From positions 1 through 64,000 of the forward strand of contig JAFTSS010000085.1 in assembly GCA_017467185.1 (NCBI GenBank): a stretch of 64,000 nucleotides of DNA. Direction: 5' to 3'. Source of the stretch: Paludibacteraceae bacterium (lineage in GTDB: Bacteria; Bacteroidota; Bacteroidia; Bacteroidales; Paludibacteraceae). Below are positions 4,731 to 46,942 of this stretch, piece by piece. Below the pieces are notes generated by a model that saw only the letters and a list, made by a program, of their open reading frames with translations, made no database searches and had not been told where the DNA came from. Each line of letters opens with the position of its first letter. Positions within the stretch are counted from its first letter, which is position 1. The position numbers and the translations under genes are program-made.

Positions 4731-4975
4731 AGACATAATGACATAAAGACATAATTTTTTTTTCTGCATACGCCTTGCTACATCTACGATGTATCTTGGC
4801 GGAAGAATGACAGACCTATCGGTATTAAAATCTGTCATTCTTTGGCTGAGATGAAACTTTGGTTTCAGCAAAGCTTGTGTTAAGAGTGATAAATTTTGTC
4901 ATTATGTCATTTTGTCTTAAAATTAATCTGTTTGAAATTAATTTTGAGTGAGTTTGCTACTATTTAACGTGAGTT
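4731..4975 (+). mobile_element. MITE-like element family A, copy 2 (tandem with copy 1)
   Basis: About 97% identical to 4479-4725. Confidence 0.7.
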
Positions 4976-5368
4976 CGATATAACTTTATAGCACACGGAA
5001 AACACGGATGACACAGAATTTGATTATTTATCTCCCACAGATTTTTTAACAAGATTATTGCTGTGCTCGGCAATTAGAGTAAACTCTATTGCTCTCGCTT
5101 ATCGCAATAATTCACAGATTTCTCAGATATTTTTCTTTCTTTACTATTCGATTTTTATCAAGATTTTGTTTATATTCAGCATAACCCAAATAAATTTGGC
5201 TTCTGCTCTCACTTATCACAAAATTCGCTCTTTTGCTACGCAAAAATAACTTCGTTGAAATTGCTTTCGTTCGGCAACTGAAGTAAACTTCGTTGCTCTC
5301 ACTTATTCGCAATTTTCGCTCTACTGATAACACGGATGCCATACGGCGTTTTATATCGAACGGACGTT
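4966..5368 (+). mobile_element. MITE-like element family B, copy 1 (18-bp TIR AACGTGAGTTCGATATAA / TTATATCGAACGGACGTT), enlarged by an internal duplication
   Basis: Its TIRs are shared with the copies at 14209 and 46690. The flanking hexamer TATTTA is duplicated. The right TIR supplies the last codons and stop of ispG. Confidence 0.65.
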
Positions 5369-6076
5369 ATTTATAAGCTCTAAAAGTTTTTCGATTGCTT
5401 CTTCTTCGGGGATGTTTTTCATTACGCATTCTTTGCCTTTGTAGAGTGAGACTTTACCCATTCCGGCTCCGATGTAGCCAAAGTCGGCATCTGCCATTTC
5501 GCCTGGTCCGTTGACGATACAGCCCATGACGGCGATTTTGAGGCCTACGAAACCTTGTGTGGCTTCTTTGACTTGACGGACTACACGTGGTAGGTCAAAT
5601 TTTGTACGCCCGCAAGATGGACATGAGGTGTATTCGGTTTTGCTGATGCGACAGCGTGATGATTGTAGGATTTCGAATGCTATGTCGTTGACTTGTTCGG
5701 CTGTGATGAATTCAGATTTGTTTGTGAGCCAAATGCCATCGATTAGGCCGTCGATTAGGTATGGTCCGAAGAAAGCTGCTGCGTGTATTTGAAGTGTTTC
5801 TAAATCGTCGAGTTCGAAGTGTTTTTTTAGGATTATTGGTTTGTCTGTTTTGAGTAATTCGTTGAAATTTGATAAATCTTCAACAATTGCAATATTTCCT
5901 TCTAAAGTCATAATCTCATCTGCAGTATAATCAGGTTTTAGTAGGGTGTTAAGTTGTTCGTTTGCTATTACAACTACGGGATTATTACCACCTATTTTGT
6001 CTATTGCAATGCTTTTGCGACGAGAATATTCAGTCTTTAATTTTGTGTTATCAATTTTGCATTTTGCATTTTGCAT
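5351..6076 (-). CDS. ispG: 4-hydroxy-3-methylbut-2-enyl diphosphate synthase, C-terminal segment (insert domain plus 4Fe-4S domain)
   Basis: 241 aa carrying the conserved C-terminal CPSCGRT...KIAVMGCIVNGPGE motif region of IspG/GcpE. It begins with its own ATG inside the heptamer tract. Confidence 0.8.
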   Translation of the reverse strand: MQNAKCKIDNTKLKTEYSRRKSIAIDKIGGNNPVVVIANEQLNTLLKPDYTADEIMTLEGNIAIVEDLSNFNELLKTDKPIILKKHFELDDLETLQIHAAAFFGPYLIDGLIDGIWLTNKSEFITAEQVNDIAFEILQSSRCRISKTEYTSCPSCGRTKFDLPRVVRQVKEATQGFVGLKIAVMGCIVNGPGEMADADFGYIGAGMGKVSLYKGKECVMKNIPEEEAIEKLLELINNVRSI

Positions 6077-6909
6077 TCTACATAGTCAACAAGTTTGCGA
6101 GCTACGGGGATTTCGGCTTCAGGGGCTTCGGATAGGGATACGCGGATTGTGTCGCCAATGCCGTCGTGGAGGAGAGTGCCGATGCCGACTGCTGATTTTA
6201 TGCGTCCTTCGTCGTCGCTGCCAGCTTCGGTTACGCCGAGATGAAGTGGATAGTTTTTGCCTTTGGCGTCCATCATTTGTACTAATAGGCGTACTGCGTA
6301 AATCATTACGCGTGTGTTAGAGGCTTTGACAGAGAGGATTAGGTTGGTAAAGCCTTCTTGCTCGCAGAGTTCGATGAACTCCATACATGAAGTGGCAAGT
6401 CCGAGAGGTGTGTTGCCGTAACGGCTCATGATGCGAGGAGAGAGTGAACCGTGGTTGACGCCGATGCGAATGGCTGTGCCTTTGTCTTTGCAGATAGAGA
6501 GCAGTGTGTGTAGTTTTTCGCGGATACGGCGTAGTTCGTCGTTCCATTCTTCATCGGTGTAGTCGCCATGCTTGCCAGTGACGAAGTTGCCGGGATTGAT
6601 GCGCACTTTTTCAACTAATTGTGCAGCGACCTCAGCTACGTTGGCGTTGAAGTGGATGTCGGCAACGAGGGGTAGGTCGATGCCTTCGGTGCGTAACGCT
6701 TCTTTTATTTTGCCGAGATTTTCGGCTTCTTTTGTGCCTTGTGTGGTGTAGCGGAGTAGTTCTGTGCCAGCTTCGAGACAGTGTTTTGCTTGAGCCACAG
6801 AGGCCTCGATATCGTTAGTGTCGGTGTTGGCCATTGTTTGTATGCGGATAGGGTTGTTGCCACCGATGCGCAAGTTGCCAACTTGAATTTCTTTTGTTTG
6901 TCGTCTCAT
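6037..6909 (-). CDS. ispG: 4-hydroxy-3-methylbut-2-enyl diphosphate synthase, N-terminal TIM-barrel segment (frame-separated from the C-terminal segment)
   Basis: 290 aa with N-terminus MRRQTKEIQVGNLRIGGNNPIRIQTMANTDT, typical of IspG. It ends 40 nt inside the next ORF in a different frame. Confidence 0.8.
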   Translation of the reverse strand: MRRQTKEIQVGNLRIGGNNPIRIQTMANTDTNDIEASVAQAKHCLEAGTELLRYTTQGTKEAENLGKIKEALRTEGIDLPLVADIHFNANVAEVAAQLVEKVRINPGNFVTGKHGDYTDEEWNDELRRIREKLHTLLSICKDKGTAIRIGVNHGSLSPRIMSRYGNTPLGLATSCMEFIELCEQEGFTNLILSVKASNTRVMIYAVRLLVQMMDAKGKNYPLHLGVTEAGSDDEGRIKSAVGIGTLLHDGIGDTIRVSLSEAPEAEIPVARKLVDYVECKMQNAKLITQN

Positions 6910-6959
6910 AATATTTAACTATATGGAAATTTTAACAGAAGTACAAATCTCTTATTTTT

Positions 6960-7190
6960 AGACATAATGACAGAAGAACATATTTTTTTTGTTTATATAT
7001 ACCTCGCTACATCAACGATGTATCTCGGTAAAACAATGACAAACCTACCGGTATCAAAATATGTCATTTTTTTGCCGAGATGAAACTTTAGGTTCAGCAA
7101 GGCATTTGCATATGAGTGATAAATTTTGTCATTATGTCATTCTGTCTGAAAAAATCATTCTGTTTAAAAGAATGAAAATTAAATCTGTAC
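6960..7190 (+). mobile_element. MITE-like element family A, copy 3
   Basis: Same TIRs (agacataatgaca ... tgtcattatgtcattctgtct), about 80% identical to copies 1 and 2. Confidence 0.6.
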
Positions 7191-7213
7191 TTATGTTAAA
7201 AAAGCAATAACTT

Positions 7214-9256: not shown

Positions 9257-9365
9257 GAGTGAGGAATTAGGAATTAGGAATTAGGAATGAGGAATTCGGA
9301 GTTAGGAATTGAATTTCTCAATTCTCAACTTTCAACTTTCAATTTTCAAATTTCAATTTTTTGTA
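9257..9365 (+). repeat. heptamer microsatellites (AGGAATT)n then (TCAACTT/TCAATTT)n immediately 5' of the antiporter start codon
   Basis: Direct inspection. Confidence 0.8.
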
Positions 9366-9726
9366 CGTTTCTGCAAAGTTAGTCATTTTTTTTTAATTGA
9401 GCAATAGTGCAAAACTTATGCCTGTGGCGGATTTTTATTAGTTTTGTTAAAAAATCTTGTGTTGTTTTATTGGATTTGTTAATAAATTACTGTGTTTTTG
9501 TTAAATTACGACTATTATTTGTAAAATATTTAGCATTTAGTGTTAAATTAACGTTAAATTTTAATTTTACGCTTGCTATTTTGTTAAAAAGTTGTACCTT
9601 TGCAGTGTCAAAACGAATTAACTTAGTTTTGGAGGTTTTTTTATAGATTATAGATTATAGATAATGTGGACAGAAGTTTTGCGTGAGCAAGGCTTCTGTT
9701 TTTTTTGTAAGGATATGGCAAAAAAA

Positions 9727-9754
9727 GTAGAGACGCAAAATTTTGCGTCTCCAC
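9727..9754. repeat. palindromic element gtagagacgcaaaattttgcgtctccac (family GAGACGCAA-N-TTGCGTCTC)
   Basis: Near-perfect inverted repeat in an intergenic region. Confidence 0.7.
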
Positions 9755-9854
9755 TAAAATTTTTTTCATAAAATTAGGGGGAGTGGTCGAAGACCGATGG
9801 GGTTAATACTTGTTATCTGTAATCTGTACTCTATTATCTGTTATTTGTATTATA

Positions 9855-11717
9855 TCAAAGTACTATCTTTTCCACCTCATCACCAACAGCAATCACATAC
9901 ACCCCACGTGGCAATGATAATTGAGCATCACGACCAGTATAAATTAATCGACCATTTACATCAAAGAGTTGATAATCTGCCGACAAACCATCCACATATA
10001 GCACACCGCCCACTGAATATATTGCAATATTTGCATTTTCGGTATTTTCGATTGAAGTATCTTCATCACTTTCTACTACATTGATAAATTCGCCCCAATA
10101 TTCATCATTTGCGTATGCCTCACGAGCTCCTTCTGGCACAATCACAGGGATATTTCTGTTCACATCGAAGAATGTTTTTGCAAAAATAGTTGGAGGCTCG
10201 ATAGCATTCACATTGATTTGTTTCATACGACTACAGAGTGCAAAACAGTTGTCGCCAATGCGTTGTGTAGTCGATGGCAAAGCGAGCGAATCGAGATAAG
10301 TACAACCATAGAATGCCGCATCACCCACTTCGGTTACACCCTCTGGAATTACAAGATTTTCCAACGCATGGCAGTTGTAGAATGCCCAGTTACCGATGCG
10401 TTGCAATGCCACATCGCCATCGGCTGCAGCACGTTTCATGCGCGATGCGAACGATTTAGCCTCAGCTTGACCACCAAATGTGATAGATTTGATAGAACGA
10501 CAATTCTCGAATGCTGCATCATTGATTTCTACCACCGAAGCAGGAATATTTATCTCTTTCAACTGATAGCACTCTGCCATAGCCTTAAATCCAATAGTTT
10601 CGAGATTGCCAGGCAACATCAAGTTCTCCAATTTATAGCAGTCGTAGAATGCCAAGTCGTTGATTGCAGTGTTTGTAGTACCAGCGAGGTCGATAGTATG
10701 AAGCGATTTTTTCGAGCGATTAATATAGTTAAAACCATTCTCATCCAACTCTCCATCAGTGATATGCACCTCAGTCAATTTATTAGAAAATTGGGTTTGA
10801 AATTCTTCCTTAATCGAATTAACCAATTTAGCAGGGCCTTGGAAATAACGAAGGTTTTTAGTTGCGTTAAGAGGATGCCATGTTTCGTCACTAGATTCAT
10901 AAAAATCAAGTTCTACATCATCCCCAAATTCACAAATCAAAGTATCAAGAGAAGAAACCATAGGAATCCATTCATCGCTTTCTTCATCATAAATATTATA
11001 ACAATAAAAAATGCTTTCACCAATATATTTAACTCCACTACCAATTTTTGCATACCTTAATTGCGCACAATCCCTAAAGACTCGTCCTCCAATACAAACT
11101 ACACTATTAGGAATTTCTATTGATGTAAGTCCAGAACATCCCCTAAATGCACTTTCTCCAATAAAAGTTACGCGATTGGGAATTGTGATTGATGTGAGAG
11201 CAGAATAATTATAAAATACATAATCCTTAATAGAGTCAACATCTTCTGGTACAACTACATCTGTTACTTTTTTATTATTTAAATATAAATTTTCTGCATA
11301 GTGTAGGGGGTTAGCAGTACTACAATTCTTAAATTCAATATCAAACCATGCGCCTACATCAAATATATATACATCAACAAGTGAATAACAAGCCAAAAAA
11401 GCATCTCCACCAATAGTTGTTACACTATTTGGGATTGTGATTGAAGTGAGAGATGAACATCTAGAAAATGCAAAATCCCCAATCTCAGTCACACTATATT
11501 CTACACCATTATAGGTTACTTTTTCAGGAATAACAATTTCTGATTGAATATATCCCGCACCATTATCATCCCATAAATACCCCCCATCATTCGTAACAGT
11601 AGCCGTCTTATTCTCATGGTCGAAATCGTAATAGATACCATCGATTTCGGCTTCATAGGCGAATGCCATTGTTGCACTACACAACAATGCAATCAATAAA
11701 AAGTAAATTTTCTTCAT
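9855..11717 (-). CDS. BspA-type leucine-rich-repeat surface protein with T9SS C-terminal sorting domain
   Basis: 620 aa with a signal peptide and repeated IPNSVTxIGxxAFxxCxxL modules (LRR_5/BspA type). The C-terminal approximately 80 aa resemble a Por secretion tail. Confidence 0.7.
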   Translation of the reverse strand: MKKIYFLLIALLCSATMAFAYEAEIDGIYYDFDHENKTATVTNDGGYLWDDNGAGYIQSEIVIPEKVTYNGVEYSVTEIGDFAFSRCSSLTSITIPNSVTTIGGDAFLACYSLVDVYIFDVGAWFDIEFKNCSTANPLHYAENLYLNNKKVTDVVVPEDVDSIKDYVFYNYSALTSITIPNRVTFIGESAFRGCSGLTSIEIPNSVVCIGGRVFRDCAQLRYAKIGSGVKYIGESIFYCYNIYDEESDEWIPMVSSLDTLICEFGDDVELDFYESSDETWHPLNATKNLRYFQGPAKLVNSIKEEFQTQFSNKLTEVHITDGELDENGFNYINRSKKSLHTIDLAGTTNTAINDLAFYDCYKLENLMLPGNLETIGFKAMAECYQLKEINIPASVVEINDAAFENCRSIKSITFGGQAEAKSFASRMKRAAADGDVALQRIGNWAFYNCHALENLVIPEGVTEVGDAAFYGCTYLDSLALPSTTQRIGDNCFALCSRMKQINVNAIEPPTIFAKTFFDVNRNIPVIVPEGAREAYANDEYWGEFINVVESDEDTSIENTENANIAIYSVGGVLYVDGLSADYQLFDVNGRLIYTGRDAQLSLPRGVYVIAVGDEVEKIVL

Positions 11718-12090
11718 AATAATTAAAGTTTTAGTGATTAATATAATTCGTTTTATAAAATAGAGACTATAGGTGAAATAGTAACTATAGGAGCAATAGA
11801 GACTATAGAAACTATAGTAGAGGGGAGATTAAACAGGCGTTAATTTAATATTAGGTGTATCAGGTGGTTATTAAAAATGTACAAATAAAGTGGATGACGG
11901 TTTTTTTCGGCAGAGGTTGTTTGCACCTTCGATAAGGGTAGGTTGTGGATTTAGTTGTACATTTTGACACAAAAAAAACGTGGAATTCGACTGTTGTCGT
12001 TCCACGAACTGAGGCTGTCGCATTGCCTTGAAGTCGGAACAGACAACGCGAAGCCCACGCTGAAATGTATGTATATTTATACCCCTACAG

Positions 12091-12112
12091 GAGACGCAAT
12101 ATATTGCGTCTC
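12091..12112. repeat. palindromic element gagacgcaatatattgcgtctc
   Basis: Perfect 10-bp arms. Confidence 0.7.
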
Positions 12113-12312
12113 TACAGGTATGTACAACATTCCCGTAGGACATCTAACGTTGCAATGCTCTTGACTTCATTAGAAACTGCGACATTTCAGTTCGTCAGAA
12201 CAAAGCGTCGATAAACGCCTATTTATTATTTATATCTTGCGATTCCCACCCGATTGCCCAATCAGCGTGAGTTTCACACCGCAAAGGTAGAAATTATTTT
12301 TGAAATATCCAA

Positions 12313-13251
12313 TTATTCCGAAATAATTTTTACGTTTTCGGCTATTATTGTTTTGTATTTTTCTTTTATTTCGTTTGGTAAGAACGATAGGTCTATCATT
12401 TCATACCATGCAGGAATAGTTTTATTGAATTTTTTGAATATATTGGCAATAGTTTTTTCTTCTAAACCTGAATTTTGCATTGCTATTTCGAAGTCTATTT
12501 TTTTTATCTTCCGTTTTTTGCTATTCAGATTCAATGCCAATTCTTCAGTGTCTTCTGGTAAAACTAATTGTGTTGATAAAAGGTTGTAAGCAGGAGATAA
12601 TATATGTCCGTATCCGATTGGTTTATATAGTGAAAAGTTCTTTAAATGCATATCGGAATTTCCAACTAACCACGAGAATAGAACTATTTCCCAAAATTTG
12701 ATGATGTCTAATTTTGGTACAGATGAATATTTGGCAATTAGTTTCGCTATTTGTTCGTATGACCCTTTATATTTATGCTCTGTTAATCTTTCTGATAATT
12801 GACACATATCTTCCATTGCAAGTTTGTATCCATTGTTTAATCTATCAATGCGACGAGTCAAATAGCAAAGGCGACCATCGGCAATTGGTATCAATGTATG
12901 AGGTACAACGTCAATACCAGATATTTCAGCCAAATGCATAGTTAAATCTTCGATTTCTGGTAGATTGGCATAAATGTCGGTTTGAGGTTTTAATATGTAT
13001 CGTCCCCATAAACCAACAATAGTGAATCTTTTTTCTTTGCTCTCTGTAGTGATATCTAACGAAAGTTTAGCTTGAACCCCAGTTAGTGTGGTTTGACTGC
13101 GAATGACTTCTTCTGCCAATTTGTTTAAATCAGCATGATGAAAATTGGCAATTGGGCACGTTGTATCGTTGAATATTTTTTTTGAACATGTGCGATGAAA
13201 CCCAATTTCGCCATTTTTTAATTCTTTGTAACAATAAAAACATTTAGCCAT
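12313..13251 (-). CDS. HipA-like serine/threonine kinase toxin (HipT-like: kinase core without the HipA N-terminal subdomain, with N-terminal CxxC...HxxC zinc ribbon)
   Basis: 312 aa. It carries the catalytic-loop motif VGNSDMHLKNFSL typical of the HipA family and an N-terminus CFYCYKEL...HRTC. Confidence 0.75.
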   Translation of the reverse strand: MAKCFYCYKELKNGEIGFHRTCSKKIFNDTTCPIANFHHADLNKLAEEVIRSQTTLTGVQAKLSLDITTESKEKRFTIVGLWGRYILKPQTDIYANLPEIEDLTMHLAEISGIDVVPHTLIPIADGRLCYLTRRIDRLNNGYKLAMEDMCQLSERLTEHKYKGSYEQIAKLIAKYSSVPKLDIIKFWEIVLFSWLVGNSDMHLKNFSLYKPIGYGHILSPAYNLLSTQLVLPEDTEELALNLNSKKRKIKKIDFEIAMQNSGLEEKTIANIFKKFNKTIPAWYEMIDLSFLPNEIKEKYKTIIAENVKIISE

Positions 13252-13255
13252 ATCT

Positions 13256-13582
13256 CTATTCTTCTTCTTTTATTTCAATGACACTAATAGCTCCTATGCA
13301 ATCACGGCAACAAGCTAATAATAGCGACATGCGGTCGCGATTGTTTATTTTCCAATTGCGCTCTGCTATATCAAGTAGCCAGCCTTCAGGTATTAAACCA
13401 TCAAAAAATGGGAATAACACTTTGTCGTGGTATGTTTCTTCTTGCAGTGGTAGTGTCAAACTAATTGGTTCGGCATCTGGTTGTACTAGATATTCTTTCT
13501 TGTACTGAAAAGAATAACCATTGTCTGTTTCTCGTAAAATGCCAACTTGTCTGTCTCGTAGATATATATATGCTTGTTTCAT
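13256..13582 (-). CDS. HipA N-terminal-domain protein (HipS-like third component)
   Basis: 108 aa. A 5-nt gap separates it from the kinase gene, and its start overlaps the hipB-like stop. Its length and position match HipS of the HipBST systems. Confidence 0.65.
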   Translation of the reverse strand: MKQAYIYLRDRQVGILRETDNGYSFQYKKEYLVQPDAEPISLTLPLQEETYHDKVLFPFFDGLIPEGWLLDIAERNWKINNRDRMSLLLACCRDCIGAISVIEIKEEE

Positions 13583-13785
13583 TATTTATCTCTATCTTGT
13601 TTGATTGGACCAACTTCGTAACCAAATAGATTTAATACTTGGTTCAATTTGTCAAGACGTAAAGTCTCTTTACCTTGTTCTAAATCACGAATAAAACGTA
13701 ATCCAACTCCTGATTTTTCGGATAAGTCAATTTGTGTTAGGTGATATTGCTTGCGCATTGTTTTTATAAATTCTGCAATTGTCAT
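13582..13785 (-). CDS. XRE-family helix-turn-helix antitoxin (HipB-like)
   Basis: 67 aa containing the HTH LTQIDLSEKSGVGLRFIRDLEQGK. Confidence 0.75.
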   Translation of the reverse strand: MTIAEFIKTMRKQYHLTQIDLSEKSGVGLRFIRDLEQGKETLRLDKLNQVLNLFGYEVGPIKQDRDK

Positions 13786-13806
13786 AGTTGTTTTTTTGTC
13801 GATTAT

Positions 13807-13906
13807 TATACCTTATAGGGTATAATTTATTGTTTAATTATTTATTTTATACCCGAAAAGGTATATTTTTGTTCTTATTTGGTGATATTATACCCGTTCG
13901 GGGTTA
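13807..13906. promoter_or_regulatory. three palindromic operator-like sites TATACC-N6-GGTATA upstream of the hipB-like gene
   Basis: tataccttatagggtata (13807-13824), tatacccgaaaaggtata (13848-13865) and the imperfect tatacccgttcggggtta (13889-13906). Confidence 0.5.
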
Positions 13907-14208
13907 TTTTGTGTTGCAAAGGTAGAAATTATTTTTTGAATATCCAATTATTCTAAAATATTTTTTTATTGGTGGTCTGGTAAAAAATAAAGCAATTATT
14001 CAAACTGTTAATAAACAAAGGGGAGATAAGATAATCTTATGAGAGGGGGAGTTTTTAGTTCGACGTTTTCAACGTCGTAGAGTGTGGGGAGTTTTCTTCT
14101 TCTGCAGGTAATTTTTGCGATATCGCTTCGCTTCTCGCAAAAATCACCCGCAGTTACGCATAATTCGACGTTTTCAACGTCGTTGTATCTTGAATTCTCC
14201 TTAATTTT

Positions 14209-14452
14209 AACGTGAGTTCGATATAACTTTATAGCACACGGAGCCAACGGTCTTGAGCCTTGGCGAAAATGCACAGATGACACGGAGATTTTTCATTACA
14301 TACCCCTCTGTTCAGCAGACATATTGAGCGGACGCACGAGCCGTGCGTCCCTACAATGAGGAGGATTTTTGCCGAATTCGCTCTTTTGCTACGCAAAAAA
14401 CGCTCTACGGATTGTACGGATGCCATACGGCATTTTATATCGAACTGACGTT
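14209..14452 (+). mobile_element. MITE-like element family B, copy 2 (244 bp, 18-bp TIRs, flanked by duplicated TTAATTTTA)
   Basis: TIRs aacgtgagttcgatataa / ttatatcgaactgacgtt. It contains an internal palindrome gacgcacgagccgtgcgtc. Confidence 0.7.
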
Positions 14453-14592
14453 AATTTTATTGTGAAATTATAAATATTTTAATTCGCATAGGTTATTTCG
14501 TTTATATGAATTATCATAATATAATTTTTAGCGGACAGTAATAATTTTTTAATGATGGATATTAGAACTTTGTTTTGAATTTATAGAAATCC

Positions 14593-14632
14593 TTTTACAT
14601 AAACAACGGCTGAACCGCATTGCGATTCAGCC
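14593..14632 (-). terminator. long perfect hairpin aaacaacggctgaa-loop-ttcagccgttgttt downstream of the ppiD-like gene
   Basis: 14-bp perfect stem. There is no strong U-tract, which is common in Bacteroidetes. Confidence 0.4.
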
Positions 14633-14658
14633 GTTGTTTATGTAGGATATTATTTTGA

Positions 14659-18233: not shown

Positions 18234-18690
18234 TAGTTTAGAGTTAAAAGTTTAGAGTTAAGAGTTAAGAGTTAAGAGTTTAGAGTTAAGAGTTAAGAGT
18301 TTAGTGTTTAGAGTTAAGAGTTAAGAGTTTAGTGTTTAGGGTTAAGAGTTTAGTGTTTAGAGTTAAGAGTTTAGTGTTTAGAGTTTAGTGTTTAGAGTTA
18401 AGAGTTTAGCGTTTAGAGTTAAGAGTTAAGAATTAAGAATTAAAAATTAAAACATTTAATTCCACATTCCACATTCCTCACTCCTCATTCCTCACTCCTC
18501 ATTCCTCATTCCTCATTCCCCATTCCTCATTCCCCATTCCTCATTCCCCATTCCTCATTCTCCATTCCTCATTCCCCATTCCTCATTCCACATTCCACAT
18601 TCCACATTCCTCATTCCTCATTCCCCATTCCTCATTCCACATTACTCATTCCACATTACTCATTCCACATTCCACATTCCTCATTCCTCA
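18234..18690 (+). repeat. two abutting heptamer microsatellite arrays, about 31 x (GAGTTAA/GAGTTTA/GTGTTTA) then about 33 x (CATTCCT/CATTCCA/CATTCCC)
   Basis: Direct inspection. The arrays fill the whole gap between the lptC-like stop and the gldE-like start. Confidence 0.9.
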
Positions 18691-19265
18691 ATAGGTATTG
18701 TGCCTTTTGGTTGGCGTATGCTGTATCGGCTGAAGGTTTGATTAGATTCGAACCCGATGCCGAGTATTTTTCTGTCTTTTTGGATGATTGTTATTGCAGA
18801 GTCGCTATATACGCGCTCTTCTTTTTGGTCCCAATATAGTTCATTGGTATAAAATTCCTCTTGGTTGAGATTTGTTGCCTCAATGTTGTCATTGAGTTTC
18901 CATAGTTCTAATTTGCTGTAATAAATTGCTTTATCGCATTCTATTTCAGCATCAATGTTGTAGTTTTCGTCGAAGCGTTCAAAACGTAATCCGTTTGGAA
19001 AATCCCAATATGGGGTATCGGCTTTTTCATAGACGTACCAATCTGGAGCTATAATTCTGTAACGGATTATACCAGAGTCGGATACGATGGTTGTTATTGA
19101 ATCGGCATACACCTGAGGTGTATGTTTTATATCAGTTATGGAAGATGTCATGTCGTGCTTTGTTTGGCACGAAAAAAATAATGCACAATGCAAAATGCAC
19201 AATGCACAAAAAAAATTAGATACGAGATGCGAGACACGAGATGCGAGACACGAGATGTGAGGCAT
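18681..19265 (-). CDS. hypothetical protein, possibly LptC-family periplasmic LPS-export protein. The start is uncertain (alternative ATG at 19151).
   Basis: 194 aa. The N-terminal 38 aa are encoded by an (ATGCACA)n heptamer tract. Conserved Bacteroides synteny (coaX - OMP - TPR - lptC - gldE - ppiD) supports the call. Confidence 0.35.
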   Translation of the reverse strand: MPHISCLASRVSHLVSNFFCALCILHCALFFSCQTKHDMTSSITDIKHTPQVYADSITTIVSDSGIIRYRIIAPDWYVYEKADTPYWDFPNGLRFERFDENYNIDAEIECDKAIYYSKLELWKLNDNIEATNLNQEEFYTNELYWDQKEERVYSDSAITIIQKDRKILGIGFESNQTFSRYSIRQPKGTIPIEE

Positions 19266-21974: not shown

Positions 21975-22036
21975 TATAATTTACAATCAATAATCTGTTA
22001 TCCGTAATCTGTTATCTGTAATCTGTACTCTGTTAT

Positions 22037-22807
22037 CTATTTTGATATATTTTTCGCAATAAAGTTTAATCCCTTTGGCACAAGCATCGGTTCAAAAAAT
22101 AGCGAGGAGTGAGAAGTGAGGAGCGAGGAGTTATCTATAATGTTTAAATTAAAAAGTCCTCCAGTCAATATCACTTTTAAGTTATTATACTCCTTTAAAT
22201 ATTTTTCAATGTAGCCATTTATTTCGTTTATCACACCCCAATATGCCCCATTCAAAATTGCCTCACGGGTTGTTAAGCCCAATTGAGCATTGTGCATTTT
22301 TTGCTTTGGTTCAAAACCATTTTCTATTGAGCATTGTGGAAGTGCTGCCGTAAAATGATGCATAGCATCCAATCTCATTTGTATGCCAGGGGCAATATTA
22401 CCACCTACGAAATGACCATCAATCAACAAATCGTACGTATTGCATGTGCCACAATCAATTACCAAATAATTTCCCTTGCCAGCAATTGCGTATGCCCCAG
22501 CCAAAGCCGCAATCCTATCCTTGCCCAAAGTTTCAGGTGTTAAGTAATCAATTTCGAATGGTAGAGGTGATTTGTATGACAATAGATGATATTTTGCGTC
22601 TATTTCGTCTAATAATTGTGCAATTCTTCTCTCTTTTTCAGGATTAACACTCGACACGATAACATATTTGAGTAGGTCAAACCGAGAAAACAAATTAACT
22701 ATGTCTTCTTTATTAAATTGTTCAAATACAATATGTTCAACCAACCGTTCTCCATCGAAAACAGCTGCCTTTGTTTTAGTATTGCCTATGTCGATAGTCA
22801 GTACCAT
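22037..22807 (-). CDS. coaX: type III pantothenate kinase
   Basis: 256 aa with N-terminus MVLTIDIGNTKTKAAVFDG, characteristic of CoaX. Confidence 0.85.
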   Translation of the reverse strand: MVLTIDIGNTKTKAAVFDGERLVEHIVFEQFNKEDIVNLFSRFDLLKYVIVSSVNPEKERRIAQLLDEIDAKYHLLSYKSPLPFEIDYLTPETLGKDRIAALAGAYAIAGKGNYLVIDCGTCNTYDLLIDGHFVGGNIAPGIQMRLDAMHHFTAALPQCSIENGFEPKQKMHNAQLGLTTREAILNGAYWGVINEINGYIEKYLKEYNNLKVILTGGLFNLNIIDNSSLLTSHSSLFFEPMLVPKGLNFIAKNISK

Positions 22808-24828: not shown

Positions 24829-24868
24829 GGGGTGTTAGTTACTAGTTATTAGTTATTAGTTATTAGTT

Positions 24869-25037
24869 AGTAATTTTCAATTTTTGCGTTAAGCGAGAGC
24901 AATGAAAATTATTTCAATTGCCGAGTGGAGCAAAAATCACGACCGAAGGGAGTAATTCTCAATTTTTGCGATAAGCGAGAGCAATGAAAATTATTTCAAT
25001 TGCCGAGCGGAGCAAAAATCACGACCGAAGGGAGTAA
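24869..25037 (+). repeat. tandem duplication of an approximately 84-bp unit (aattttcaatttttgcgttaagcgagagcaatgaaaattatttcaattgccgag...gaagggagta)
   Basis: Two copies about 93% identical. They are flanked by (TAGTTAT)4 on the left and (AACACTC)n on the right. Confidence 0.8.
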
Positions 25038-27094: not shown

Positions 27095-27180
27095 TTTGAA
27101 ATTTTAAATTTGAAATTTTAAATCTTCGTTATGATTTTCAACTTTCAACTTTCAATTTTCAATTTTCAACTTTAAACGTA

Positions 27181-32310: not shown

Positions 32311-33241
32311 CTAATCAGCGTTTTTCATATCTATTGAATATTTTAGTCCAATGCGAAATTCATGATATTGCCAATCTTTAATGCCGTATTGATAGGCGAC
32401 GTATGGTTCTAATCCGTATGGGCAAGGAATGCCAATTTTTGTTTTTAATGTCATAGGTTTATCTCCATTATTTTGCCAGCCTATATAACCTCCCCATTCT
32501 GTGATTAGTCGTAAATATAGAGCTTCAAATTCAGCCCTTAATCCATACATGTAGGCATCGTTTTGTTCTGCTCGTCCTGTTTGCCAGCAATAGAATCCGA
32601 TTGACCCAGAAAGACTAAATGATTTTGCCCATTTATTTTCCCAATTTATTTTTTCGGCGAGTGCTAAATCTAAGAAGTATCCTGGAGCATCAATGAATCT
32701 TTTATTCTCAAAATTTCCTCCCGATGCTGTTTTTATGCCTATTCTAACAACTGCCGAAGGTATATATGGTGATGATTTTTTGAACCATTGGTGGTGCAAG
32801 ACTTGAATATTAGTGCTTACATAAATATCTCCAGCAACATTATGCCAATTATTTCGTGTCTCGTATCTCGTATCTCGTGTCTCGTATCTCGTGTCTCATG
32901 TCTCGTGTCTTTTTTTTTGAATAAAAATCCATTACCGAATACCAAGCCTCCAAATTTACCCAACGTGTAAAAAGAGGTATATTCAATCGTAGATTTGGTG
33001 TAAAAGTATTGCTTTGGTCAAATCCTCTAAAGTAACTTCCTGATATTTCTACTGAAAATTTATCTGAAGTTTCTCCCGACGACATCTCTATCACTGGCAA
33101 CGCATTGGGCCCCCACGGCATCTCTTGTCCCCACCCAAACAACGAAAAAAACAAAGCGCAACCTACGAGGCATAACCTCATACATTGCGCTTTAATATTT
33201 AGTTTGTAAGTCATAAGATTATGAGTTAATTTAACTTTCAA
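32311..33241 (-). pseudogene. outer-membrane protein gene split into two frames at a (TGTCTCG)~7.5 heptamer array plus T9 tract (32857-32918); candidate phase-variable or disrupted gene
   Basis: The upstream ORF (33241-32849, with signal peptide) ends inside the array. The downstream ORF (32799-32311) is open through the array in the other frame. Confidence 0.5.
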
Positions 33242-33269
33242 CTCTCAACTTTCAACTTTCAACTCGTTT

Positions 33270-40626: not shown

Positions 40627-40687
40627 TTACTCATTCCTTAGGTTTTGGAGAGCAATGTAGCTTACTTTAGTTGCTGGTGAAAAATAA

Positions 40688-42142
40688 TTCCTCATTCATC
40701 ATTCCTCATTCCTCATTTTTAATATTTTTACCTTCATATTTTCAATCATTCTTCTCGTATTAGGCTATGTAGTATATGGTCGCATAGTCGCTCGAGTTTT
40801 TGGTGCAGACTCCAATCGTGTAACACCAGCCATAGCCAATCCCGATGGTGTTGACTATGTATCAATGCCATGGTGGAAAATTTTCCTTATTCAATTTCTT
40901 AATATTGCAGGGCTTGGACCTATTTTTGGCGCAATTATGGGAATCATGTTTGGTCCATCTGCATTTCTTTGGATTGTATTTGGCTCTATATTTGGTGGTG
41001 CTGTACATGATTATCTTTCGGGTATGTTGTCTATGCGACGCAATGGTGCATCATTGCCTGAATTAGTGGGTGAACAACTCGGTATGGGGGTTAAGCAATT
41101 TATGCGCGTTTTTTCGCTTTTGTTGATGGTGCTTGTTGGTGCTGTTTTTGTAAGCGGTCCTGCAGGTTTGCTTGCTGGTATGGTGAAATCTATTAGCGTT
41201 ACTTGGTGGATTGTAATTATTTTCGGCTATTATATGCTTGCAACTTTGCTCCCTATCGATAAACTCATTGGTAAAATCTATCCATTGTTCGGATTTGCTC
41301 TACTTTTTATGGCTGTAGGTATTTTGGTTTCTTTGTTTATTAACAACGCACCAATACCTGAAATTACATCTGGACTTGCAAGCCAACATCCACAAGGTTA
41401 TTCAATTTTTCCAATGATGTTTGTCTCTATTGCATGTGGGGCAGTCTCTGGTTTTCATGCTACTCAGTCGCCTATGATGGCACGCTGTATGACGAATGAA
41501 AAATATGGTCGTCCATGTTTTTATGGAGCTATGATTGCCGAAGGCATTGTTGCTCTTATTTGGGCAGCAGCAGCCTCTTCGTTCTTCGGTTCAGTTGGTG
41601 GATTGCAAGAGTATGTTGCCTCTTTACCTGCTACTGCAAACAAGGCTGCTGAGGTTGTTAATCTTATATCTAACACTTGGTTAGGTAAATTTGGTGGTAT
41701 TTTGGCCGTGTTGGGTGTTGTGGCTGCTCCTATTACTTCGGGCGATACAGCTCTCCGTTCAGCTCGCCTTATTGCTGCCGATTTTTTACATATTGATCAA
41801 AAACCAATTCTTAAGCGTCTTATGGTGGCAGTACCTCTTTTCGTGGGTACATTCATATTATTACAAATCAATTTTGATGTAATTTGGCGTTATTTTGCTT
41901 GGAGCAATCAAACACTTTCTGTCTTTACTTTTTGGGCATTGACAGTATATCTTTATAAGGAAAAACGTTGTTATTGGATAACTTTAATTCCTGCTCTATT
42001 TATGACTGCTGTATGTTCTGCCTATATTATGGTTGCCCCAGAAGGTTTCGGTCTCCCACTATATATAGGCTATATCGTCGCCGCAGTTGTTTGTATAGTT
42101 TTTACTCTTTTATTTATTCGTTTCACAAAAAATAAACTATAG
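40688..42142 (+). CDS. cstA: carbon starvation protein CstA; no canonical start, and the 5' end overlaps the (TTCCTCA)n array
   Basis: CstA homology (LGYVVYGRIVARVFGADSNRVTPAIANPDGVDYV...) starts upstream of the first ATG (40865) and runs back to the stop at 40685 inside the heptamer array. Confidence 0.7.
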   Translation, partial: FLIHHSSFLIFNIFTFIFSIILLVLGYVVYGRIVARVFGADSNRVTPAIANPDGVDYVSMPWWKIFLIQFLNIAGLGPIFGAIMGIMFGPSAFLWIVFGSIFGGAVHDYLSGMLSMRRNGASLPELVGEQLGMGVKQFMRVFSLLLMVLVGAVFVSGPAGLLAGMVKSISVTWWIVIIFGYYMLATLLPIDKLIGKIYPLFGFALLFMAVGILVSLFINNAPIPEITSGLASQHPQGYSIFPMMFVSIACGAVSGFHATQSPMMARCMTNEKYGRPCFYGAMIAEGIVALIWAAAASSFFGSVGGLQEYVASLPATANKAAEVVNLISNTWLGKFGGILAVLGVVAAPITSGDTALRSARLIAADFLHIDQKPILKRLMVAVPLFVGTFILLQINFDVIWRYFAWSNQTLSVFTFWALTVYLYKEKRCYWITLIPALFMTAVCSAYIMVAPEGFGLPLYIGYIVAAVVCIVFTLLFIRFTKNKL

Positions 42143-42214
42143 CTACTATAGTTCCTATAGGTTCTATAATTCCTCATTCCTCATTTCTCATTTCTCATTT
42201 CTCATTCCTCATTC
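42141..42214 (+). repeat. nonamer (CTATAGNNC) then heptamer (CATTCCT/CATTTCT)x7 array immediately 5' of the helicase start
   Basis: Direct inspection. Confidence 0.8.
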
Positions 42215-44728
42215 TTGATAATGTCTATTTACGAAATTGCCGAAGAATTTATTCAGTTGACTAATTGCTCTGTTTTCCTGACAGGTAAAGCTGGTACGGG
42301 TAAGACTACTATGCTTCGGCAGATTCGTGATGTGGCATTCAAGCAAACAGCCGTTGTTGCTCCTACTGGTGTGGCGGCTATCAATGCTGGTGGTACGACA
42401 ATTCATTCCTTTTTTCAACTCCCTTTTTCTCCATTTATACCTACTATTGAGGCAAAAAAATCGTTTATTGCAAAGCAACAGGTCAATAATGTTCGCCGTA
42501 AAATATATCGCGAGCTCGAATTGCTTATCATCGACGAGGTTTCTATGGTGCGTGCCGACGTACTTGATGCAATTGACACAGTATTACGTCATTATCGTTT
42601 CCGCCCAAATGAGCCATTTGGGGGAGTCCAAGTAGTTTTCATTGGCGACATGTACCAATTGCCTCCTGTCTGCGTGGGTGAAGAGTGGGATCTATTGCGT
42701 CGTTATTACGAAACACCATATTTCTTTCATTCTCAAGTCATTCGTCAAGATCCCCCGATATATATCGAACTTGATAAAATTTTTCGTCAAAGCAATCAGC
42801 AGTTTATCAATTTGCTTAACGAAGTTCGCAATAATCAGCTTACTCCCGACACTTTCCGCTTGCTGAATCATTGTTATCAGCCTAATTTTCGTAATGTTGA
42901 TGAATATATCACTCTCACAACGCATAATGCCTCTGCCGATGCAATCAACAATGACGAATTAGCAAAAATCGATGCACCATATTATAAATTTATGGCTCAT
43001 ATCGACCGCGATTTTCCTGAACGAATTTTCCCAACCGAGATAGAACTTATCCTTAAATTAGGCGCAAAAGTCATGTTCATTGCCAATGACATGGCTCAAC
43101 CTCGTCGTTATTATAATGGAAAAATTGGTGAAATCACCGAGATAAATAATAATGAAATTTGGGTTACATGTGAAGGTGAAACAGAGGCGATTAAAGTCTC
43201 GCTCGAAGTGTGGGAAAACAAGTCCTATACTATCGACCCTAAAACCAATCAGATAGAAGAAAAACTTTTGGGTACTTTTACTCAATATCCTCTGCGTTTG
43301 GCTTGGGCTATTACTATTCACAAAAGTCAAGGTCTTACATTTGATAGGGTAGTGATTGATGCTGCCGCAGCCTTTGCTTCTGGGCAGGTTTATGTCGCAT
43401 TATCGCGTTGTCGCTCATTAGATGGAATTGTTTTAACCTCTCAAATCAACCCTAATTCCCTTGCTGTTGACCCTCAAATTGTGCGGTATAGCGAGCAGCG
43501 TCTGCCTATTGTTGAGCTTGAGCGTCAAGTTGAATTATTTAAATCTCGTTATAGTATTCAACTTCTTGCTAAGTTGTTTAGCCTCGAAGATTTAATGTCG
43601 CATACATTCAGTTTTGTAAATTATATCAAAACTGTTTTAGATGATTTCAACGAAGATACTGCGCCTTATCTCGATGAAATATTAAAACGTGTGAATGATT
43701 TATATGCTGTAGCACAACGTTTTGTGGCACAACTTTTATCTTTCAATCCTAAATTAGACATAGTTCGTATTGCTGAACGTGTAAAAGCTGCTTCTGGCTA
43801 TTTTGTTCCTCAACTTGATGATTTATTGGTTCTTATAGAATCATCTCCTGCTATAACCGAAAGCAAAGTAGAGGCTCAAGATTATATTGATCGTTTACAA
43901 GCTGTGTTTGAAATTGCGTCACAACTTCGTCATATCATTGCGGGCATTGCCGATGATATCTCCGTAATTAACTATTTCGATGTAAAACAGTCATATAAAG
44001 TTCCGCCGTTTAAGGTGAAAGCCTACGTTGTAGAACGTGAAGTGAAGATGTTAAAGACCGAGCATCCAAAACTTTATAAAATGCTTGCTACTTGGCGTAA
44101 TGAGTATTGCAAAGAGAATAACATTCCTGCATTTCAAATGTTTAGCAATGCTACTTTGGTCGAAGTATCAAATCGTCTTCCTATCGAATTAGAGTCGCTA
44201 ATTAAAATTAAAGGTTTTGGAAAAATAAAAATCCAACGATTTGGTAAAGAGTGTGTTGATATTGTGCGAATTTATTGTCGTGAAAATGGTATCGATGCCT
44301 CATCTCAGTCTGATATTGCTTTTGAATCAGAGTCTGATTATGGTAATGCCGCAGAAGAAGGTAGAGACGCAATAAATTGCGTCTCAAAAAACAAGAAAAG
44401 TAGGCGCAAGGAAAAAGAAAAAATAGAAAAAATACCAACCAAAGAAATAACGTTATCTCTTATTAATCAGGGAAAAACGTTACAAGAAATTGCCGACGAA
44501 CGAAGTCTTGTTTTAAGTACGATCTACACTCATTTGGCAAAACTCATACATGCAAAAAAAATCGACATCGCTCAATATGTCGATATCGATTTATTGGATA
44601 GGGTTATGTTGGTTCTCAATGAAACCCCTGAAATTTCTAATTCTGAACTATTCGAACGCCTCGAAGGTTCTGTAACATACGATGAATTAAAACTTATTCG
44701 AGCTCATCAACTTTCAAGTAATAATTAG
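42215..44728 (+). CDS. Pif1/RecD-like SF1B DNA helicase with C-terminal HRDC-like and HTH domains
   Basis: Walker A LTGKAGTGKTT, with helicase motifs throughout the first 450 aa. An HRDC-like region lies at aa 640-700 and a C-terminal HTH follows. Confidence 0.7.
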   Translation: MIMSIYEIAEEFIQLTNCSVFLTGKAGTGKTTMLRQIRDVAFKQTAVVAPTGVAAINAGGTTIHSFFQLPFSPFIPTIEAKKSFIAKQQVNNVRRKIYRELELLIIDEVSMVRADVLDAIDTVLRHYRFRPNEPFGGVQVVFIGDMYQLPPVCVGEEWDLLRRYYETPYFFHSQVIRQDPPIYIELDKIFRQSNQQFINLLNEVRNNQLTPDTFRLLNHCYQPNFRNVDEYITLTTHNASADAINNDELAKIDAPYYKFMAHIDRDFPERIFPTEIELILKLGAKVMFIANDMAQPRRYYNGKIGEITEINNNEIWVTCEGETEAIKVSLEVWENKSYTIDPKTNQIEEKLLGTFTQYPLRLAWAITIHKSQGLTFDRVVIDAAAAFASGQVYVALSRCRSLDGIVLTSQINPNSLAVDPQIVRYSEQRLPIVELERQVELFKSRYSIQLLAKLFSLEDLMSHTFSFVNYIKTVLDDFNEDTAPYLDEILKRVNDLYAVAQRFVAQLLSFNPKLDIVRIAERVKAASGYFVPQLDDLLVLIESSPAITESKVEAQDYIDRLQAVFEIASQLRHIIAGIADDISVINYFDVKQSYKVPPFKVKAYVVEREVKMLKTEHPKLYKMLATWRNEYCKENNIPAFQMFSNATLVEVSNRLPIELESLIKIKGFGKIKIQRFGKECVDIVRIYCRENGIDASSQSDIAFESESDYGNAAEEGRDAINCVSKNKKSRRKEKEKIEKIPTKEITLSLINQGKTLQEIADERSLVLSTIYTHLAKLIHAKKIDIAQYVDIDLLDRVMLVLNETPEISNSELFERLEGSVTYDELKLIRAHQLSSNN
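44361..44385. repeat. palindromic element gtagagacgcaataaattgcgtctc embedded in-frame in the helicase gene (encodes GRDAINCVS)
   Basis: Perfect 10-bp arms located in an inter-domain linker. Confidence 0.7.
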
Positions 44729-44899
44729 TCTTTTGTCCTATCATATTCTCCCCCTGTTTTAGGGGGAACTGACGCAGGAGAGAGAGCAGGACCAAGCCCG
44801 CTTGAGTTATGCCGAGCGACAAGGAAGTCGCCGAAGGCAATACCCGAAGGGGGAGGGGGTTCGACTATTGACTATTGACTATTGACCATTGACTATAGA

Positions 44900-45502
44900 C
44901 TATAAACTATCGTCTGTCGCTCGTTTTTTCATCTCTTCATTGTAGCAATGGCGGCAAATAGGCTCATATTTGTCAGTTTCACCCAATAATACTTGAGATT
45001 CGCCGGCAACTAAACGATGTGAAACGTATGCTGGAGCGCCACAACGTACGCATACAGCATGTACCTTTTGTATGTCATCAGCAATAGCCATCAATGCAGG
45101 CATTGGTCCGAATGGAGTGCAACGGAAGTCCATATCCAATCCCGCAATAATCACGCGATAACCGCTTTCTGACAATTTGCGGCATACGTCAACAATTCCA
45201 TTATCAAAAAATTGGGCCTCATCAATGCCTATAACATCAACATCACCAGCCATCAATAAAATATTTTGCGACGATTCTACTGGTGTCGATTGTATTGCAT
45301 TATGGTCATGGCTAACAACTTCAGTCTCTGAATAGCGGGTATCTATACAAGGCTTAAATATTTCAACTCTTTGTTTTGCAAATTTTGCACGTTTCAATCT
45401 GCGGAGCAACTCTTCTGTTTTTCCTGAAAACATAGACCCACAAATTACTTCTATACTTCCACGATGAGGACAACTGCAGTTAGCTGATTCAAAAAAATAC
45501 AT
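44900..45502 (-). CDS. tdk: thymidine kinase
   Basis: 200 aa with the P-loop [11 protein letters not shown] and zinc-ribbon cysteines CVRCG...CRHC. Confidence 0.85.
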
Positions 45503-45651
45503 ATATTATTGTTTTTTATTCGTAAAAAATTCGTACCTTTGTATTTGTAAAAATGAAGTAAGCTCAATATTTAAATTATGTAGAGGAGACCCATTTTTGC
45601 CATGCAAAGTTACAAAATAAATTTTAATAAAAATCATATTTTTCTTACAAA

Positions 45652-46617
45652 ATGAACAAAGAAGTTTTAGTTGCACTTATAGCAAAGGATGTCAATGAAT
45701 TACAAACTCTCACTGAAGGTCTTGATCAAATGGAGACTATTCCAGCACCTTATCTTCGTCTTGCTTTGGATAAGTCAAAAGCATTGACTACGAATCTTGA
45801 TAATCTTATCAATTATTTGAATAATAAAGAATTAGAGGACGCTGCAGAAGCTCAACGTCAGGCTGAATTAGAGGCTGCAAGAGCCGAAGAAGAAGCACGT
45901 AAAGCCGAAGAAGAAGCACGTAGAGTCGAAGAAGAAGCACGTAGAGCAGAGGAAGAAGCACGCCAAGCCGAATTAGCACGTATTGCCGAAGAGCAAGAAG
46001 CTTTGCTTCGAGCTCAAGAACTCGAACGTGAGCGTCAAGCTGAGGAACGCCGTAAAGCTGAAGCTGAAATTGCTCGACAAGTTGCCGCACTTGAAGCTGC
46101 CCGTCAATTAGAACTTGAAGAAAAAAGTCGTGTCTGCAACGAGCAAAACGAAGCAGAAAATAAAATAACGATGGAAACTTCAGAGGAAAAATCTATAGCC
46201 TCTACAGAAAATATAGATTCTATAGCTCCTACAGCTCCTGTAGAAACTACTGCTCCCACAACCTCAATCGTTGGTGCCATAGCCGAAAATCAACCTCAAA
46301 CATTAGCAGAATCCATCGAAACATCAGAATCCTTAGCCGATAAACTTGCAAAAACTGCTGATGATACTCTTGCTGAAGTTATTAACAATAAAAAAATAAT
46401 AGATTTAAAATCATCTATAACTCTTGGCGACCGTTTCCGTTTCCAACGCGAATTATTTGGTGGTAATGGCGAAAAAATGAATAAAGCAATATCTGACTTT
46501 AATTCATTTGAAACTATGACCGAAGCTCAATCTTATATAGCTAAAAACTTCGATTGGCCATTAGACAACGATGCTGTATCTGATTTCATTCAACTCCTTC
46601 AACGCCGCTATTTGTAA
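45652..46617 (+). CDS. hypothetical coiled-coil protein with in-frame 24-bp (8-aa EEARRAEE) tandem repeats
   Basis: 321 aa. Four or five repeats of gaagaagaagcacgtaga-like units fall at 45890-45985. Confidence 0.4.
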   Translation: MNKEVLVALIAKDVNELQTLTEGLDQMETIPAPYLRLALDKSKALTTNLDNLINYLNNKELEDAAEAQRQAELEAARAEEEARKAEEEARRVEEEARRAEEEARQAELARIAEEQEALLRAQELERERQAEERRKAEAEIARQVAALEAARQLELEEKSRVCNEQNEAENKITMETSEEKSIASTENIDSIAPTAPVETTAPTTSIVGAIAENQPQTLAESIETSESLADKLAKTADDTLAEVINNKKIIDLKSSITLGDRFRFQRELFGGNGEKMNKAISDFNSFETMTEAQSYIAKNFDWPLDNDAVSDFIQLLQRRYL

Positions 46618-46689
46618 TAAATATTTCAGAACTAAAGTAGGGACACGGCATGCCGTGTCCGTTGTTAAATGGAATAAAAACACTTAATT

Positions 46690-46942
46690 ACGTCAGTTCG
46701 ATATAAAAATCCGTATGGTATCCGTGTAATCTGTAGAACTATTTTTGCGTAGTAAAAGAGCGAATTCAGCCAAAATCCTTCTCAACGTAGGGACGCACGG
46801 CTCGTGCGTCCGCTTAATATGTCTGTAGAACGGAGGGGTATGTGATAAAAAAATCGTGTTATCCGTGCATTTTTCGCCAAGGCTCAAGACCGTTGGTTCC
46901 GTGTGAGATAAAAGTTATATCGAACTCTCGTTAATTATGAAT
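46690..46942 (-). mobile_element. MITE-like element family B, copy 3 (inverted orientation, flanked by duplicated TTAATTA)
   Basis: About 85% identical to copy 2 over the whole length, with the same 18-bp TIRs. Confidence 0.7.

Follow-up and report, generated by a model that had tools for sequence, protein, structure and literature searches.

Small inverted-repeat elements with an IS982-type terminus in a Paludibacteraceae genome

Three family-B elements and their surroundings

We analysed a 64,000-nt stretch of DNA from a Paludibacteraceae bacterium (contig JAFTSS010000085.1, positions 1 to 64,000; hereafter the window), which holds three copies of a short repeat, family B, that had been predicted from the sequence alone to be a miniature transposable element with inverted repeats (MITE). 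The window has a GC content of 36.5% and encodes SusC/SusD-type and Por-tail proteins; metagenome contigs match it at >99.9% identity, and the nearest named relatives of its IspG and RsmI proteins come from 'Paludibacteraceae bacterium' metagenome-assembled genomes (MAGs). Copy 1 overlaps the 3′ end of ispG (encoding IspG, or GcpE), copy 2 sits between the 3′ end of ppiD and a hipBA operon, and copy 3, which is inverted, stops 19 nt short of the rsmI start codon, on its upstream side (Table 1).

Each copy is bounded by terminal inverted repeats (TIRs) of the 17-nt sequence ACGTGAGTTCGATATAA, which starts with ACG. In a search that allowed up to three mismatches, this 17-mer matches the window six times, as three head-to-head pairs with at most two mismatches, against 0.21 matches expected from shuffled sequences, and direct duplications border all three elements. 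Family-B elements range in size from 190 to 400 nt and are non-coding, the only open reading frames (ORFs) within them being spurious ones of 63–76 aa. The family thus combines the features by which MITEs are recognised, namely small size, no transposase coding capacity, TIRs, target-site duplications and dispersed copies with a common interior.

Two subfamilies can be told apart, which have in common a left arm of ~48 nt and a right arm of ~90 nt and are only ~65% identical overall. Copies 2 and 3 make up B2; from end to end they are 88% identical, and they have a GTAG-prefixed hairpin in the centre. B1 consists of a 264-nt core, seen by itself in two loci outside the window (L121 and L141), with optional ~68-nt blocks, and its copies are 85–96% identical to one another. 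Copy 1 is such a core with two nested blocks, 92% identical to L141 and 93% to a further locus, L139; its first block is 78–82% complementary to positions 24879–25020.

The original prediction was therefore right about the three elements and their termini, and its reading of them as transposed MITEs is supported, with errors confined to secondary details. It had given the TIRs as 18 bp, of which the outer A...T belongs to a TA..TA target duplication, as the empty sites described below reveal, and it had carried copy 3 on to 46942, 11 nt beyond the exact boundary. AT-rich duplications are present as proposed, with lengths of 6, 8 and 5 bp (TATTTA, TAATTTTA and TAATT) rather than 6, 9 and 7 bp. 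The palindrome GGACGCACGAGCCGTGCGTCC, placed by the prediction in every copy, occurs in copies 2 and 3 only, the hairpin being absent from copy 1 and from all B1 copies, and the internal duplication seen in copy 1 does consist of two blocks, but these are the nested ~68-nt blocks, which derive from another repeat.

At gathering thresholds, an Rfam scan of the whole window returned one tRNA only, with no match in the elements. Promoter and terminator scans gave no convincing signal and no terminator-like site; a single match to the Bacteroidota-type TTTG...TAnnTTTG promoter in the B1 core (5165–5198), antisense to ispG, does not count as evidence of function. Folded as single strands, copy 1 (z = −2.4) and copy 2 (z = −3.9) do better than their mononucleotide shuffles, unlike copy 3 (z = −1.2). 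The folding signal is mainly due to TIR pairing and the hairpin, and is no argument for an RNA gene.

Table 1. Coordinates of family-B elements and other features in the 64,000-nt window
Feature	Position	Strand	Description
Copy 1	4967–5367	+	401 nt, subfamily B1; TIRs 4967–4983 and 5351–5367, 15/17 complementary; duplication TATTTA, 6 bp
Copy 1 duplication, left	4961–4966		TATTTA
Copy 1 duplication, right	5368–5373		TATTTA
Copy 1 nested block 1	5043–5112	+	~68–70 nt; absent from L121, L141, L139 and L137
Copy 1 nested block 2	5247–5315	+	~68 nt; present in L139; absent from 264-nt L121 and L141
ispG (GcpE)	5351–6909	−	Stop codon (5351–5353) and last five codons within copy 1 right TIR
Paralogous empty site	4703–4722		GCTAC-TATTTA-TAAGCTCTA; TATTTA at 4708–4713; in first unit of 253-bp tandem duplication
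Copy 2	14210–14451	+	242 nt, subfamily B2; TIRs 16/17 complementary; duplication TAATTTTA, 8 bp
Copy 2 duplication, left	14202–14209		TAATTTTA
Copy 2 duplication, right	14452–14459		TAATTTTA
Copy 2 hairpin	14330–14350		Central, GTAG-type
Copy 3	46690–46931	− (inverted)	242 nt, subfamily B2; TIRs 15/17 complementary; duplication TAATT, 5 bp
Copy 3 duplication, left	46685–46689		TAATT
Copy 3 duplication, right	46932–46936		TAATT
Copy 3 hairpin	46791–46811
GTAG-prefixed hairpin	857–881		Complete, outside elements
GTAG prefix only	3031–3040	−	No evident hairpin
GTAG-prefixed hairpin	9727–9754		Complete, outside elements
GTAG-prefixed hairpin	12106–12115	−	Complete, outside elements
GTAG-prefixed hairpin	44361–44385		Complete, outside elements
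GTAG-prefixed hairpin	46637–46660		Complete, outside elements
GTAG-prefixed hairpin	47621–47648		Complete, outside elements
Period-7 array (example)	9262–9360
Period-7 array (example)	18235–18690
Period-7 array (example)	19180–19261
Period-7 array (example)	21991–22038
Period-7 array (example)	24835–24869
Period-7 array (example)	25043–25130
Period-7 array (example)	27080–27177
Period-7 array (example)	32854–32910
Period-7 array (example)	33233–33264
Period-7 array (example)	40687–40717
Period-7 array (example)	42169–42214
Period-7 array (example)	44863–44903

Filled and empty sites

Directly left of copy 1, and directly downstream of ispG, lies a 253-bp tandem duplication (4471–4966) with units that are 98% identical. 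Its second unit reads GCTAC-TATTTA-(copy 1)-TATTTA-TAAGCTCTA, whereas the first is uninterrupted and retains a paralogous empty site with a single TATTTA. Copy 1 is also absent at two orthologous loci, L131, where the flank has 95.5% nucleotide identity to the window, and L132, where it has 93%; both align to the window up to 4966 and resume at 5368, the two alignments overlapping by exactly 6 nt, TATTTA. Since these clean empty sites come from lineages 95.5% and 93% identical, the insertion of copy 1 is recent and its 6-bp duplication is real; its transposition is directly demonstrated. It is unlikely that the empty sites are assembly collapses of filled ones, because two independent assemblies agree and the IspG tails that they encode recur in dozens of contigs.

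When the element and one TATTTA are removed from the window flanks, the pre-insertion IspG tail is predicted to read ...LLELINSSKLTQN*, which is the actual tail of P0003 (98% identical), P0004, P0006, P0022, P0078 and others; empty-site IspG in relatives ends ...LINSSKLTQN. The tail ...LLELINNVRSI, which is encoded by the right TIR of copy 1, is found among IspG homologues only in P0001 (100%) and P0002 (99%), and the insertion is confined to lineages whose IspG is at least 99% identical, being absent where identity is 98%. As originally predicted, the right end of copy 1 gives ispG its C-terminal codons and stop; these are five codons (N V R S I) and TAA, changing the tail from SSKLTQN to NVRSI. 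Because the IspG Pfam domain ends before the altered tail, and because this tail is hypervariable among relatives, the replacement is probably neutral.

Other variation was seen around ispG. Many IspG homologues (P0009, P0011, P0028 and others) end ...LELINNNIHI or longer, for example ...SSKLTKINFKQINFETK or ...SSKNNKSANKSLFSKKSLPKICL, and sequence turnover seems to have recurred at the 3′ end of the gene. The 253-bp tandem duplication is collapsed to a single unit in assembly L128, and a third, ~81% identical copy of this repeat ('family A') at 6948–7169, just upstream of ispG, means that the repeat brackets the gene. Inside ispG, the window has three units of a heptamer array (ATTTTGC, or GCAAAAT on the coding strand; 6054–6074), the loss of one unit frameshifting the gene into two ORFs (6037–6909 and 5351–6076). 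L126, L127 and L128 encode an intact 521-aa IspG; the array of L126 has four units, and this heptamer is the sole difference between L126 and the window across 19.2 kb. It is either slipped-strand variation in an essential gene of the methylerythritol phosphate (MEP) pathway or an assembly error. The IspG segment encoded around the array is hypervariable among close relatives.

For copy 2 no exact empty site was recovered, L132 lacking the entire 4.95-kb block that contains it. This block (9706–14657) holds copy 2 and genes for a leucine-rich-repeat protein, a helix-turn-helix HipB and the N- and C-terminal parts of HipA; in L132, ppiD and a Na+/H+ exchanger gene lie ~490 nt apart. From this comparison the block appears to be a strain-variable island with a toxin-antitoxin system.

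The DNA upstream of rsmI is free of the element in three related lineages (L133/134/136, L144–146 and L147–149); none of them provided an exact empty site for copy 3, the left flank being diverged or absent. In L137, from a lineage with an RsmI 92% identical to that of the window, two tandem B1 elements occupy the exact position of copy 3, in the same orientation and with TAATT between them (L137:2450–2981; the first has a 4-nt deletion in its outer terminus). The site is therefore polymorphic among relatives, and because TAATT separates the tandem elements, the duplication of copy 3 can be fixed at 5 bp. Copy 3 has pushed DNA formerly more than 19 nt upstream of rsmI ~250 nt further off. The rsmI start itself lies within an AATTATG/AATTGTG array (46933–46966), and relatives have CTCAACT-type arrays inside the RsmI N-terminus.

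A terminus held in common with IS982 elements

We scanned one genome per species for the exact 17-mer ACGTNAGTTCGATATAA, which returned at least 120 stretches. Of the 120 listed, ~100 are from Bacteroidota, and many lie at contig ends; all pairs described here derive from these listed matches. With mismatches allowed, they form 69 head-to-head pairs, 32 of which have perfect flanking TA..TA duplications of 6–7 bp, such as TAAATA, TATTTA and TAATTA. Seven pairs are 998–1079 bp apart, each enclosing a single ORF of 248–302 aa (a 1025-bp pair in L072 was left out of this full-length set). Of the seven ORFs, two were compared with NCBIfam; on NF033520, 'IS982 family transposase', for which the cutoff is 130 bits, they reach 242 and 265 bits, and one of them matches Pfam PF13612 as well. 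The full-length elements are flanked by TAGGTA, TAAATA, TAGTTA, TATTTA and TATTTTA, and ~55 further pairs are MITE-sized, at 40–450 bp apart.

The 17-nt end of family B is identical to that of these transposase-carrying IS982 elements, and elements with this end, along with many MITE-sized derivatives, are widespread in Bacteroidota. Members of the IS982 family, according to ISfinder, duplicate 3–9 bp of target and have ends beginning 5′-AC. Family B has ends starting ACG, with duplications of 5, 6 and 8 bp in the window, and most elements with this terminus have duplications of 6–7 bp.

Some relatives outside the window were reached through the spurious 76-aa ORF in copy 1, which as a protein query retrieved 11 clusters in public assemblies and led to L141/L142, L139/L140 and L143. 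L141/L142 is a 264-bp copy flanked by TAATTA, and because it comes from the same two samples as the window contigs, it is probably a fourth copy in this genome. L139/L140 is a separate 333-bp insertion, L143 is a one-ended copy, L137b is a B1 deletion variant, and L121, from a Candidatus Aphodosoma MAG, is itself a MITE. A metagenome scan with the family-specific signature AATTCGCTCTTTTNCTNCGCAAAAA found only L124/L125, two decayed relatives from one Joint Genome Institute (JGI) sample, and so gave no useful census. Family B is low-copy: the 64-kb window has three copies, and about ten loci came to light across lineages. The original prediction had suggested looking for empty sites, for an insertion sequence (IS) with matching TIRs and for more copies, and each search succeeded: a single TATTTA stands at L131, at L132 and at the paralogous window site, ~1.0-kb IS982-family elements have the identical 17-nt end, and further copies lie outside the window, including in related lineages (L121, L137, L139, L141, L143 and the 11 clusters).

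We conclude that family B very probably consists of non-autonomous MITEs of the IS982 family, with a terminus of the ISPg3/IS195 type; the presence of an IS982 transposase in this host, and mobilisation in trans by it, are what we infer. In the proposed mechanism, a DDE transposase of the IS982 family, with its gene in another part of the genome or on an element present only transiently, would bind both terminal repeats, excise or copy the element and insert it into an AT-rich TA..TA target by a staggered cut, the repair of which would leave a duplication of 5–8 bp.

Several observations weigh against this assignment. A tblastn search of the 64-kb window for IS982 transposase homology found nothing below E = 0.18. 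When the family-B arms were compared by BLAST with the 120 terminus-bearing loci listed, only L121, a MITE, matched past the 17-mer; the likeness to the sampled full-length IS982 elements is therefore that of the 17-nt terminus only, no sampled IS having the family-B subterminal arms, and family B may have arisen otherwise than by simple deletion. Duplication length varies (5, 6 and 8 bp), with exact empty sites verifying that of copy 1 only, and the flanks of L139 are inverted, TATTTTA/TAAAATA, rather than direct, so a clean duplication is not universal. All six near-identical assemblies (L001–L003 and L126–L128) carry all three copies, and there is no sign of ongoing movement in the sampled population.

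Alternatively, each copy could be what is left of a complete IS982 element that inserted at that site and decayed there through deletion of its transposase gene, the small units never having transposed. Identical ends are what such decay would leave, eroded IS982 copies are known as intermediates in Cardinium (PMC9769881), and the low copy number here, three in 64 kb and probably a fourth on another contig, would agree with it. Yet unrelated loci have the same non-IS interior, as in copies 2 and 3, alike over 242 nt, and in the 264-nt B1 core common to copy 1, L141, L139, L121 and L137 (85–96%). Independent deletions would not converge on identical junctions, and tblastn detected no remaining trace of transposase coding in the window; in-place decay is thus very unlikely. 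The common interiors at unrelated loci show that family-B units dispersed in their short form rather than arising through the decay of full-length copies.

We give similarly little credence to the idea that family B has an IS982-like terminus but is moved by a transposase from a different family, such as IS5 or IS4, or by site-specific targeting. Klein et al. placed ISPg3 under IS5 (PMC4596501), IS982 transposases match IS5 and IS4 models weakly, no partner gene was found in the window, and the TAATT site upstream of rsmI, with different subfamilies in two lineages, hints at a strong target preference. However, all seven full-length elements enclose one ORF of IS982-transposase size, with both scanned ORFs far above the NF033520 equivalog cutoff, and full-length and MITE-sized elements have the same 6–7-bp TA..TA duplications.

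Least likely of all is that these are units like repetitive extragenic palindromic (REP) sequences or bacterial interspersed mosaic elements (BIMEs), served by a REP-associated tyrosine transposase (RAYT; IS200/IS605-type), or structural or terminator hairpins, with flanking duplications that are chance matches in AT-rich DNA: a GTAG tetranucleotide beside a hairpin is reminiscent of REP elements, and copies 2 and 3 do contain a GTAG-prefixed hairpin of the class dispersed in the window, but neither copy 1 nor any other B1 copy has this hairpin, exact empty sites reveal a 401-nt insertion with a 6-bp duplication, perfect duplications in 32 of the 69 pairs are far above chance, and REP/RAYT elements are not known to have TIRs or target duplications. 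Family B has both, and a GTAG motif with a palindrome does not make up the whole unit.

Modular interiors, known systems and meaning

The interiors of family B hold repeats that also occur on their own. A repeat of ~68–82 nt, with the core TTGC..GCTCGGCAA..AGTAAACT..TTGCTCTCGCTTATCGCAA, exists as a free 82-nt tandem pair (24869–25032, within 24869–25042) and as the optional MITE blocks, and is also present in L124, L125, L137, L139 and L143; its behaviour resembles that of a minisatellite or of a mobile module nested in others. The GTAG-hairpin motif occurs 12 times in the window against 4.7 expected, and one variant of it forms the centre of copies 2 and 3. These hairpins are GC-rich, for example GTAGAGACGCAA....TTGCGTCTC and GTAGGGACACGGCATGCCGTGTCC, and often lie just 3′ of genes; the dispersed ones could be REP-like units or terminators. 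Period-7 tandem arrays are unusually dense as well, with ~18 in 64 kb and up to 33 units, mostly intergenic and some at gene starts.

It is conceivable, if on balance doubtful, that family-B elements are modular carriers with interiors that are exchanged in place. Pointing to such cassette exchange are the copy 3 site, with a hairpin-bearing B2 element in the window and two tandem B1 elements in the same orientation in L137, the B1 copies that differ in ~68-nt blocks also existing as free tandem repeats, and the B2 centre, a GTAG hairpin of an independently dispersed class. One exact site with different subfamilies in two lineages could reflect cassette exchange or a strong insertion hot spot.

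Comparable elements have been described in Porphyromonas gingivalis, where the left TIR of MITE239 is ACGTGAGTTCGATATAAAGGAA and the ends of ISPg3 (IS195) are ACGTCAGTTCGA and TCGAACTGACGT, the two being paired (Klein et al. 2015, PMC4596501, Table 2); IS195 is classed in the IS982 family (PMC13305171). The left terminus of family B is identical over all 17 nt to that of MITE239, which, along with MITE700, is paired with ISPg3/IS195, and like MITE239 the family is ~240 nt long, non-coding and found in a Bacteroidales host. Over the published 22-nt terminus, however, the two sequences split right after the 17-mer (AGGAA... versus CTTTAT...), and family B also differs from MITE239 in its division into two subfamilies, between which the centres are swapped, and in its nested ~68-nt blocks.

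In Cardinium, MITECca01 and MITECca02 derive from ISCca4 of the IS982 family. MITECca01 resembles family B in size (~240 bp), IS982-type inverted repeats, lack of a transposase and residence in a Bacteroidota genome, and is inferred to depend on intact parental IS982 copies (PMC9769881). MITECca01 has 169 copies, a clear parental IS in the same genome and conserved subterminal sequence, whereas family B is low-copy and no parent with its arms was found among the 120 terminus-bearing loci listed. Full-length Bacteroidota IS982 elements (for example L108, L115 of Mediterranea massiliensis, L078/L113 and L033) have the same 17-nt TIR and 6–7-bp TA..TA duplications, but are 1.0–1.08 kb long and carry the gene for a ~300-aa DDE transposase (NF033520); family B, which has no coding content, has the terminus alone in common with them.

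The BrickBuilt and MITEPgRS elements of P. gingivalis, MITEs with a trapped minisatellite, are likewise MITE scaffolds, and the tandem or modular repeats inside them vary in copy number (PMC4596501), paralleled in family-B relatives by the optional ~68-nt blocks and by GGCTCAAGACCGTTGG units. They differ from family B in their IS5-type termini (GAGACCTTTGCA), their internal repeat of 23 or 41 nt and their ill-defined duplications.

Elements of the family-B kind are ordinary and have been reported before from related bacteria, and the current understanding of transposition is unchanged by these findings. They document, for an uncultured Paludibacteraceae lineage of gut type, a MITE insertion that is clean, can be dated and has both filled and empty alleles, in which copy 1 rewrites the C-terminal codons and stop of the essential ispG with the conserved domain unharmed, and they place short derivatives with the ISPg3/IS195-type IS982 terminus in dozens of Bacteroidota genomes. 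Such elements matter for annotation, since they break assemblies and lead gene callers to report spurious ORFs. What stands out most are the modular interiors and the single exact site at which two lineages have different subfamilies. If cassette exchange does take place, the 48- and 90-nt arms could be recombination handles, with cassettes swapped between copies, and small repeats captured in this way, such as hairpins and minisatellites, would be spread through the genome by the IS982-type termini. Conservation of the 17-nt end throughout the phylum would then allow any resident IS982 to move such carriers across lineages. The modular interiors of family B offer a small natural system for the capture and exchange of other repeats by MITEs.

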